Virus record (IMG/VR): IMGVR_UViG_2531839476_000015
Span: 1 to 49,036 of that record
DNA length: 49,036 bases
From: a virus
Lineage: Duplodnaviria > Heunggongvirae > Uroviricota > Caudoviricetes
Reading direction: 5' to 3' (one strand)
Each line of letters begins with the position of its first letter. The first letter of the stretch is position 1. A program made the translations under genes and the position numbers. The notes under the pieces were generated by a model, which was not told where the DNA came from, did not search any database, and saw only the letters and a program-made list of their open reading frames with translations. Shown here piece after piece: positions 14,959-16,348 of this stretch.

Positions 14959-15174
14959 ATGAGTACGATAGCTGAGCTTGTCAGGGCTAATTTTCGTGAA
15001 GAGTTGGTGCGTTGGTATCGGTATCGTTCATCGTCCAGTTTGCCGCTTGATGAGTTGTATGAGCATTCACCTGCCGCACGACGCTATCCGCGTGACCGTG
15101 TTCTTCGACGGTTGTTCAAACTCAACAATGAGTTTCAGCGCAACAGAATTATCCGGAGTCTGGATTTAAAGTGA
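14959..15174 (+). CDS. Hypothetical protein (71 aa, Arg-rich)
   Basis: ORF track only. Confidence 0.4.
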   Translation: MSTIAELVRANFREELVRWYRYRSSSSLPLDELYEHSPAARRYPRDRVLRRLFKLNNEFQRNRIIRSLDLK

Positions 15175-15184
15175 AGGAGTGAGC

Positions 15185-15421
15185 ATGAGCGACCTATCAT
15201 TAACCCAGCCAAAGCTAAAAGAATGTCCGTTTTGCGGCGGTAATGCTCGTCTGTGGGTTGAGGCTGGAATAAATATTGATGTGTGGGGCTATGCAGAATG
15301 TGACCTCTGTGAAGCCAGGGGGGCATGGGCACCATCAGTTGCTGCGGCGGCTGAAAAATGGAACCGGAGAGCAGGAGATGAAGCAAACCTTTCTGCTTCG
15401 CAACGAAGCAATCAGAAATAA
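15185..15421 (+). CDS. Lar-family restriction-alleviation protein (zinc ribbon, KECPFCGG)
   Basis: AAGGAG upstream of ATG; CPFCG...C..C motif typical of Lar-like anti-restriction proteins of lambdoid prophages. Confidence 0.6.
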   Translation: MSDLSLTQPKLKECPFCGGNARLWVEAGINIDVWGYAECDLCEARGAWAPSVAAAAEKWNRRAGDEANLSASQRSNQK

Positions 15422-15824
15422 CGCCATAGACGCCATTCTCTCACTACCCATCGACGACAAGTCACCCCACGAAGTCCACGTTAAAGAACCCAAGCGCAGC
15501 AAAGCGCAGAATGACCGTATGTGGCCGATGCTGAACGATGTTTCGCGTCAGGTGCTATGGCATGGTCAACGGCTGGCGCCGGAAGACTGGAAAGACCTGT
15601 TCACTGCCCTGTGGCTTAAGACCAAAAAACTGGAGCAACGAAGTGTGCCTGGTATCGACGGTGGCGTTGTCATGCTTGGCGTGCGTACCAGCAAAATGCG
15701 GAAGGCCAGCATGACTGAGCTTATCGAAATCATGTTCTGGTTCGGCTCAGAGCGCAACGTGCGGTGGAGTGATGACTCCCGGCGAGAGTATGAATGGTCA
15801 CAACGAAAAGGTAGGGCTGCATGA
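15378..15824 (+). CDS. ninB: NinB recombination protein
   Basis: Internal Met MKQTFLL...; C-terminal part (DVSRQV.WHG..L....WK..FTA...ERGVKWSD...EW...GRAA) matches lambda NinB. Confidence 0.85.
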   Translation: MKQTFLLRNEAIRNNAIDAILSLPIDDKSPHEVHVKEPKRSKAQNDRMWPMLNDVSRQVLWHGQRLAPEDWKDLFTALWLKTKKLEQRSVPGIDGGVVMLGVRTSKMRKASMTELIEIMFWFGSERNVRWSDDSRREYEWSQRKGRAA

Positions 15825-16348
15825 CTATCAAATCAAATACGCCAGCACACGACAAGGACTGCTGGCAAACGCCGCTTTGGCTTTTTGATGCACTGGATAT
15901 TGAGTTTGGATTCTGGCTGGATTCGGCAGCGAGCGACAAAAATGCTCTGTGCGCTCACTGGTTAACTGAGGCCGACGACGCGCTAAATTCTGAGTGGATA
16001 AGCCACGGTGCAATCTGGAATAACCCACCGTACAGCAATATCAGGCCGTGGGTGGAAAAAGCCGCTGAGCAGTGCATACAACAGCGACAGACGGTAGTTA
16101 TGCTTGTGCCAGAGGATATGTCAGTCGGATGGTTCAGCAAGGCTCTGGAGAGTGTTGACGAAGTTCGCATCATCACTGATGGACGGATTAATTTTATCGA
16201 ACCATCGACAGGGCTGGAGAAGAAGGGAAACAGCAAAGGCTCCATGCTGCTGATTTGGCGACCGTTCATCAGTCCTCGACGAATGTTTACTACTGTATCC
16301 AAAGCGGCATTGATGGCGATCGGGCAGGGCGTCAGGATGGCGGCATGA
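15821..16348 (+). CDS. Phage DNA N6-adenine methyltransferase (Dam-like, NPPY motif)
   Basis: 175 aa with WQTP...NPPYS motif characteristic of phage orphan N6-adenine methyltransferases. Confidence 0.85.

Follow-up and report, generated by a model that had tools for sequence, protein, structure and literature searches.

A Lar-family gene and an orphan phage-type Dam methyltransferase gene flank ninB in an already annotated nin-region block of a lambda-like phage

A 49,036-nucleotide (nt) stretch of virus DNA (IMG/VR record IMGVR_UViG_2531839476_000015; Duplodnaviria, Heunggongvirae, Uroviricota, Caudoviricetes), referred to below as the window, was analysed for the content of the interval 14959-16348, in which a Lar-family gene and an orphan N6-adenine DNA methyltransferase gene, both on the plus strand, lie on either side of the recombination gene ninB. 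The interval is probably a standard nin module of the Shiga toxin (Stx) phage type situated in a lambda-like phage, with Lar and Dam as independent cargo that flanks ninB in one inherited block. Its genes were identified by profile matches, their arrangement was read directly from the DNA, the methyltransferase is nearly identical to a characterised GATC methylase and the genes are linked in the copies compared. A preliminary description had placed the two genes correctly around ninB (PF05772); the gene for a DUF7301 protein, which it did not mention, also lies in the interval.

The preliminary description had further taken the co-occurrence of Lar and Dam as a sign of selection, and this part was not borne out by a comparison of ninB loci. 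An IMG/VR scan with a single NinB sequence gave near-identical loci only; a second scan was seeded with an alignment of diverged NinB sequences. Diverged ninB loci were taken from contigs of a one-genome-per-species set, from this second scan and from contigs encoding the Salmonella Lar homologue, and the 107 usable loci were dereplicated to 29 distinct combinations of slot occupant (the gene, if any, directly 5' of ninB), Dam state and NinB cluster. Both Lar and Dam were present in three of these arrangements, Lar without Dam in five, Dam without Lar in eight and neither in 13, corresponding to a Fisher odds ratio of 0.98 (p = 1). The DUF7301-Lar-NinB-Dam-NinE block was found at ~97-100% identity wherever the contig covered it in the 80 IMG/VR loci whose NinB is at least 97% identical, and such copies, being 97-100% identical, count as a single evolutionary event. 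The Dam allele of the window (at least 95% identity) occurs in 244 phage records, compared with 119 for its Lar allele (LarA), and about half of the records with this Dam allele are without LarA. In Salmonella P22-like prophages a Lar allele overlaps ninB and ninB leads straight into ninE, without Dam, in five of the six places shown. Selection for Lar and Dam as a two-layer anti-restriction package would account for the presence of Dam in most LarA-bearing phage records (~114 of 119) and for the recurrence of the block among the loci with near-identical NinB; it is nevertheless very improbable, given that these copies represent one event, that the dereplicated set gives no association, and that there are repeated cases of Dam with no Lar and, for four of the five Lar alleles, of Lar with no Dam (LarB and LarD only so). 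Lar and Dam occur together here by inheritance as one block and not by demonstrable selection.

Over its 1.8 kb, the block matches VT2-Sakai, 933W-type, Stx1a-converting and other phages at 99.3-99.5% identity; 114 phage records and 483 of 5426 complete Escherichia coli genomes contain at least 80% of it. The VT2-Sakai annotation gives the same gene order (H0102-H0106), including 'dam', and the RefSeq product names are 'DUF7301 family protein', 'Lar family restriction alleviation protein', 'recombination protein NinB' and 'phage N-6-adenine-methyltransferase'; the E. coli genome that matches best (99.3% DNA identity over the 1.8-kb query) has a near-identical Lar copy, WP_001281772.1, under the Lar-family name in RefSeq. 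The Lar-NinB-Dam module is ordinary, already known and annotated, and has little value as a discovery, since hundreds of Stx and lambdoid prophages already carry annotations for both genes.

The methyltransferase matched PF05869 from end to end (218 bits, cut-off 28.1, profile positions 1-167 of 169) and the TIGR01712 equivalog profile with 264 bits (cut-off 97), and its NPPY motif was located at residues 68-71 (nt 16022-16033), in agreement with the earlier assignment as an NPPY methyltransferase. Its neighbours are ninB and ninE, without an adjacent endonuclease gene, and PADLOC matched it to its orphan methyltransferase models, which upholds the term 'orphan'. A Pfam search at E <= 0.01 returned PF05869 only, with no match to the E. 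coli/T4 Dam family, and a sequence search of the PDB returned no relative of the enzyme. On these profile matches the enzyme is assigned to the phage HP1/T1/VT2 Dam family and not to the E. coli/T4 Dam family; the earlier label 'Dam-like' is thus apt for function and name and misleading for ancestry. The protein is identical to the VT2-Sakai Dam in 173 of 175 residues (98.9%), the substitutions being I60V and M173R; a near-identical orthologue was reportedly cloned in 2001. The VT2-Sakai Dam is given as M.EcoVT2Dam, with target GATC, in PMC6602927, where Radlinska & Bujnicki (2001) is cited for it. The methyltransferase of the window is the orthologue of M.EcoVT2Dam and would be expected to methylate the adenine of GATC because it is 99% identical to this characterised enzyme. 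A methylome of a Dam+ lysogen would be uninformative on the phage dam gene, because the host Dam already methylates GATC (99.9% of sites in Stx-producing E. coli, STEC; PMC6602927); the module genes, moreover, are situated beyond a terminator in the N-dependent pR operon.

The gene 5' of ninB, described earlier as encoding a Lar-family zinc-ribbon protein, was confirmed as such. The protein matched Pfam PF14354 (Lar_restr_allev; E 1.8e-10, 41.3 bits, cut-off 28.6), NCBIfam TIGR03655 (anti_R_Lar; 62.3 bits, cut-off 39.6) and PHROG 599 ('Lar-like restriction alleviation protein'; E 9e-39). The zinc ribbon has the form K-x-CPFCG...CDLC (CxxC) and is followed by a WNRR (WNxR) helix motif; C14, C17, C39 and C42 (codons 15224-15226, 15233-15235, 15299-15301 and 15308-15310) and W59-N60-R61 align with the Lar protein of the Rac prophage and with four other alleles. 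Identity to Rac Lar (RalR) is 36% over 58 residues by BLASTP and 33% in the multiple alignment. An AlphaFold2 model with three strands and a C-terminal helix was obtained with low confidence (predicted local distance difference test score, pLDDT, 54.8; six close homologues only), and a sequence search of the PDB gave marginal matches to eL43 zinc ribbons (best E 0.009). On family membership, the product is regarded as a candidate restriction-alleviation protein. Three of ~60 LarA copies (loci L010, L056 and L072) are truncated after '...CEARG' by a change of frame, at a point that corresponds to a G-run of the window (~15309-15315).

Rac Lar relieves EcoKI restriction and is believed to boost de novo EcoKI methylation in the manner of lambda Ral (PMC3177214; PMC12707154); EcoKI alleviation and enhanced modification are credited to King & Murray (1995) as cited in PMC3177214. 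Later work re-described this protein, under the name RalR, as a toxin with non-specific DNase activity whose partner is the small RNA (sRNA) RalA (PMC4041452). A toxin-antitoxin pair of the RalR/RalA type was considered for the present gene and is not supported: the score against the RalR equivalog NF007260 was 27.6 bits (cut-off 113), no RalA homologue was found in the window and no antisense match of at least 12 nt to the Lar mRNA was found in it, the longest reverse-complement match being 11 nt, which is at chance level. Rfam gave no match at the Lar gene, and the single minus-strand promoter-like site there (15175-15148) is within chance expectation (two sites found, 3.9 expected). No experimental test of the Stx-phage Lar allele was found in the literature searched; with the founding Lar re-described as a DNase toxin, a restriction test of this allele matters more.

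The position directly 5' of ninB (15140-15421 in the window; compared in loci L084-L130) behaves as a cassette slot, taken up by one of five Lar alleles, by an acidic protein (phrog_1603), by a zinc finger of another kind, by further small proteins or by no gene, and ninB forms the conserved anchor between two variable positions. The occupants start after a semi-conserved ribosome-binding sequence and all end at one common stop codon, 44 nt into ninB, and they therefore share a tail of ~14 residues, DEAN[I/L]..S.RSNQK. All five Lar alleles pass PF14354; they are 26-43% identical to one another, a divergence like that of each from Rac Lar. The slot is empty in lambda and P22, and NinA of P22, considered as a Lar protein, was rejected as a 26-residue open reading frame (ORF) that is not Lar. 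The position fits an accessory or counter-defence hot spot, to judge from its occupants. That it is a cassette-exchange site whose Lar alleles have diversified for different type I HsdM families or other defences, as a compact library of anti-restriction specificities, is considered unlikely. The diverged alleles could in any event provide a cheap panel for the specificity of Lar towards restriction families.

The module would be transcribed from pR after N antitermination as a set of delayed-early genes, because it lies downstream of a tR2-like terminator, and its expression would be expected when the phage infects or is induced, and not while the lysogen is repressed. For the dam gene of Phi24B, the product of which is reported to be 100% identical to the VT2-Sakai Dam, expression changed on induction (one-way analysis of variance, p < 0.05). 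Dam would see to it that every GATC of the rapidly replicating phage DNA is methylated, whatever the capacity of the host Dam, and fully methylated progeny would resist enzymes of the DpnII/MboI type in the next host. The Lar zinc ribbon, by analogy with its family, would shift a type IA enzyme (EcoKI family) towards methylating rather than cutting unmodified DNA. The window contains four EcoKI, ten EcoBI, two EcoAI and 13 EcoR124I sites. Lar and Dam would on this scheme be independent cargo that travels together as the flanks of ninB.

The view of both genes as anti-restriction functions, put forward in the preliminary description, agrees with the conventional reading of the two families, and several points weigh against it. 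The activities of Lar and Dam in this phage are predictions from sequence, and for Lar the prediction leans on 33-36% identity to a single characterised protein that has itself been re-described as a DNase toxin. A preprint on phage Bas63 reports that a Lar homologue is conditionally important where the host has no intact type I system, and suggests type IV systems, not type I, as its target. GATC is depleted in the window, with 115 sites (2.35 per kb) where a Markov model predicts 223 (ratio 0.52). As E. coli hosts are Dam+ themselves, additional GATC methylation may instead be used for replication, packaging, gene regulation or the evasion of mismatch repair. The prophage is perhaps defective, with frameshifts in homopolymer runs, and the module might be inert cargo in this copy. 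As separate observations on site composition, GATC is absent from 42-46 kb, and CTAG occurs only eight times in the 49 kb.

Two alternatives to this scheme concern the function of one gene each. The phage Dam may be mainly a housekeeping or regulatory enzyme and not an anti-restriction device; by completing GATC methylation on rapidly replicating phage DNA it could relieve SeqA binding or MutH nicking at hemimethylated sites, tune promoters or packaging, or stabilise lysogeny. This would suit STEC hosts in which nearly every GATC is already methylated; stable lysogeny of 933W needs the host Dam, and the authors of the Phi24B work proposed the phage Dam as a supplement. P1 packaging needs Dam methylation, and a role in regulating viral cycles is supposed for many orphan methyltransferases (PMC12707154). 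In the window, GATC is dense in the O/P replication region (ten sites between 12345 and 14142, compared with the overall density given above), and dam adjoins the gene of a recombination mediator. On the other side, the Dam family spans 1900 phage records, including virulent T1-like phages and Klebsiella, Vibrio and Lactococcus phages, and thus phages with unrelated life cycles; lambda and P22 manage without a phage dam gene; and a small phage Dam with NPPY as its only such motif, the orphan M.Phi93DAM of lactococcal 936-type phage, methylates GATC and directly blocks DpnII on phage DNA (PMC4190342). A mainly regulatory Dam is accordingly a possibility of lesser weight than the module reading.

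The Lar-like protein, for its part, may not alleviate type I restriction at all and could instead be a RalR-like DNA-binding protein or nuclease, an accessory of NinB in recombination, or a counter-defence protein directed at type IV or other systems. Its distance from Rac Lar, the re-description of the latter and the Bas63 result all lean this way, as does the genomic context, since all five diverged Lar alleles are translationally coupled to ninB and Rac lar lies beside recT. The same slot, however, is empty or occupied by unrelated proteins elsewhere (lambda, P22 and many other loci), so that NinB has no need of Lar, and the low RalR equivalog score and the failure to find RalA or an antisense match in the window count against a RalR-like protein. 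A role outside type I alleviation is therefore held to be doubtful, to about the same degree as a regulatory Dam. The preferred reading remains that of a standard Stx-type module with Lar and Dam as independent cargo.

The features of the interval and of the further regions discussed below are collected in Table 1. The genes from DUF7301 to ninE are packed as one translationally coupled unit: the TGA stop codon of the DUF7301 gene overlaps the Shine-Dalgarno sequence AAGGAG that precedes the Lar ATG by 5 nt; the last 44 nt of the Lar gene overlap ninB in a different reading frame; and at both the ninB/dam and the dam/ninE junction a start and a stop codon overlap in ATGA. In this copy none of the Lar, NinB and Dam reading frames is interrupted. 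NinB is 45% identical to lambda NinB. The DUF7301 protein is predicted to be a helical hairpin (AlphaFold2 model, all helical, mean pLDDT 74.6), and a fold search of the PDB with this model returned nothing at E < 1 (best match E = 2.9). The 97-residue ORF that opens the lambda-replacing segment gave no Pfam or NCBIfam match and is found in most, not all, copies of the block in the IMG/VR loci. The hairpin downstream of ren lies within DNA that is 97% identical to lambda and is, from its position, probably the counterpart of lambda tR2. Minus-strand and alternative-frame ORFs across the interval gave no family match and were judged spurious, and no PADLOC defence-system model matched Lar, DUF7301, NinB or the adjacent ORFs.

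Table 1. Positions of the features discussed, numbered from the first nucleotide of the window
Feature	Position	Strand	Match or basis
242-residue ORF, in the ral/sieB place downstream of N	8017-8745	-	phrog_12139
phrog_2602 gene, split	10024-10556	-	phrog_2602
DUF3024 gene, in the lambda rexAB place between cI and N	10746-11087	-	PADLOC candidate model PDC-S43, E 1.3e-41
O gene, split	12555-13492	+	
ren	14187-14477	+	
Terminator-like hairpin followed by a T-run, just 3' of ren	14503-14526	+	Terminator scan
97-residue ORF, first gene of the lambda-replacing segment	14533-14826	+	phrog_343, E 1.7e-29
DUF7301 gene, 71 residues	14959-15174	+	PF23975, E 3.8e-26; phrog_1785
Lar-family gene, LarA allele, 78 residues	15185-15421	+	PF14354, TIGR03655, phrog_599
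ninB, Orf-family recombination mediator, 148 residues	15378-15824	+	PF05772, E 9e-49
Orphan N6-adenine DNA methyltransferase gene, 175 residues	15821-16348	+	PF05869, E 8e-65; TIGR01712
ninE	16345-16527	+	PF05322, E 8e-44; 95% identical to lambda NinE
C4/isrK-type RNA matches	16551-16749	+	Rfam: c4-a1b1, isrK, C4 antisense RNA
Antirepressor-like gene	16803-17480	+	
Antirepressor-like and Roi/KilAC genes	16803-18277		
tRNA gene	19942-20014		
tRNA gene	20098-20171		
TerB-like gene	20272-20775		
sRNA STnc100	20944-21151		
Anti-GcvB sRNA AgvB	21152-21213	-	

DNA identity to lambda (97%) stops near 14549 and returns at ~16352, in ninE, so that the module is a 1.8-kb substitution for the lambda genes ninB-ninC-ninD. 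The phage carries lambda-type cI (98%), N (92%), O, P and ren; ral, sieB, rexAB, ninC, ninD, ninF and ninI of lambda are absent from the window. Lambda contains no homologue of the Lar-like gene or of the methyltransferase gene. The earlier statement that these functions are not present in lambda therefore holds for the genes and fails for restriction alleviation, because lambda carries a functional analogue of the Lar-like gene, Ral, for which restriction alleviation of type IA enzymes by enhanced modification is presumed (PMC3177214; PMC12707154). A tblastn search with lambda Ral found no similarity in the window (best E 0.32). If it works as named, the Lar-like gene looks like a substitute for Ral rather than an added layer, because lambda has Ral and the present phage is without ral. 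Other genes occupy the places of the missing lambda genes, with a DUF3024 gene between cI and N and a 242-residue ORF downstream of N; the last 20 residues of the latter match the Nun-like transcription termination factor family (E 3.6e-5).

Three genes elsewhere in the prophage are broken, all in A-rich runs. The O gene, which relative to lambda contains a 39-bp in-frame insertion that adds iteron-like repeats, is split into two frames by a 1-nt deletion in an A-run near 13050; the antirepressor-like gene, compared with the intact copy of another locus (L001), is disrupted by two frameshifts that compensate each other; and the phrog_2602 gene is split into ORFs of 121 and 63 residues. A homopolymer indel is placed at 10191-10215. 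These homopolymer breaks suggest either assembly errors or decay of the prophage. Directly 3' of ninE and upstream of the antirepressor-like and Roi/KilAC genes, RNA matches above the Rfam gathering score were found for c4-a1b1 (50.6 bits), isrK (76.6 bits) and the C4 antisense RNA (75.1 bits), and this arrangement looks like a P1/Gifsy-type antisense-RNA control of the antirepressor. Downstream of Q (19942-21213) the window carries two tRNA genes, a TerB-like gene and the sRNAs STnc100 and AgvB; no stx gene was seen in this region.

Among known systems, the nearest to the module as a whole are those of VT2-Sakai (H0102-H0106) and 933W (orf6, orf7, L0093 and L0094), which have the same gene set and order and 99.4% DNA identity over 1.8 kb; they differ in the left flank, which in the window is lambda ren and not a P gene of the HK022 type, and in that the module of the window stands in a phage with lambda-type cI, N, O, P and ren, in which no stx was seen. 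Lambda Ral presumably does the same job as the Lar-like protein; it differs in lacking sequence similarity and in being encoded in the pL operon, in contrast to the nin-region position of the Lar-like gene. The Rac prophage Lar (RalR, b1348) belongs to the same Pfam and NCBIfam family and shares the CPFCG...CxxC ribbon followed by the WNxR helix; its gene adjoins recT and not ninB and is paired with the sRNA RalA, whereas the gene of the window is without RalA.

For the methyltransferase, E. coli Dam, T4 Dam and P1 Dmt (MethyltransfD12) are expected to yield the same product, G(m6A)TC, and belong to a different protein family from the enzyme of the window. They are much larger enzymes with a target-recognition domain. 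M.Phi93DAM is likewise a small orphan phage Dam with NPPY alone; it is found in phages of a Gram-positive host and its gene lies between the terminase genes. Lactococcus phage methylases in phage records, which may or may not include M.Phi93DAM itself, are ~33% identical to the enzyme of the window. The closest counterpart is M.EcoVT2Dam, with which the enzyme shares the NPPY motif, the orphan status and all but two of its residues.

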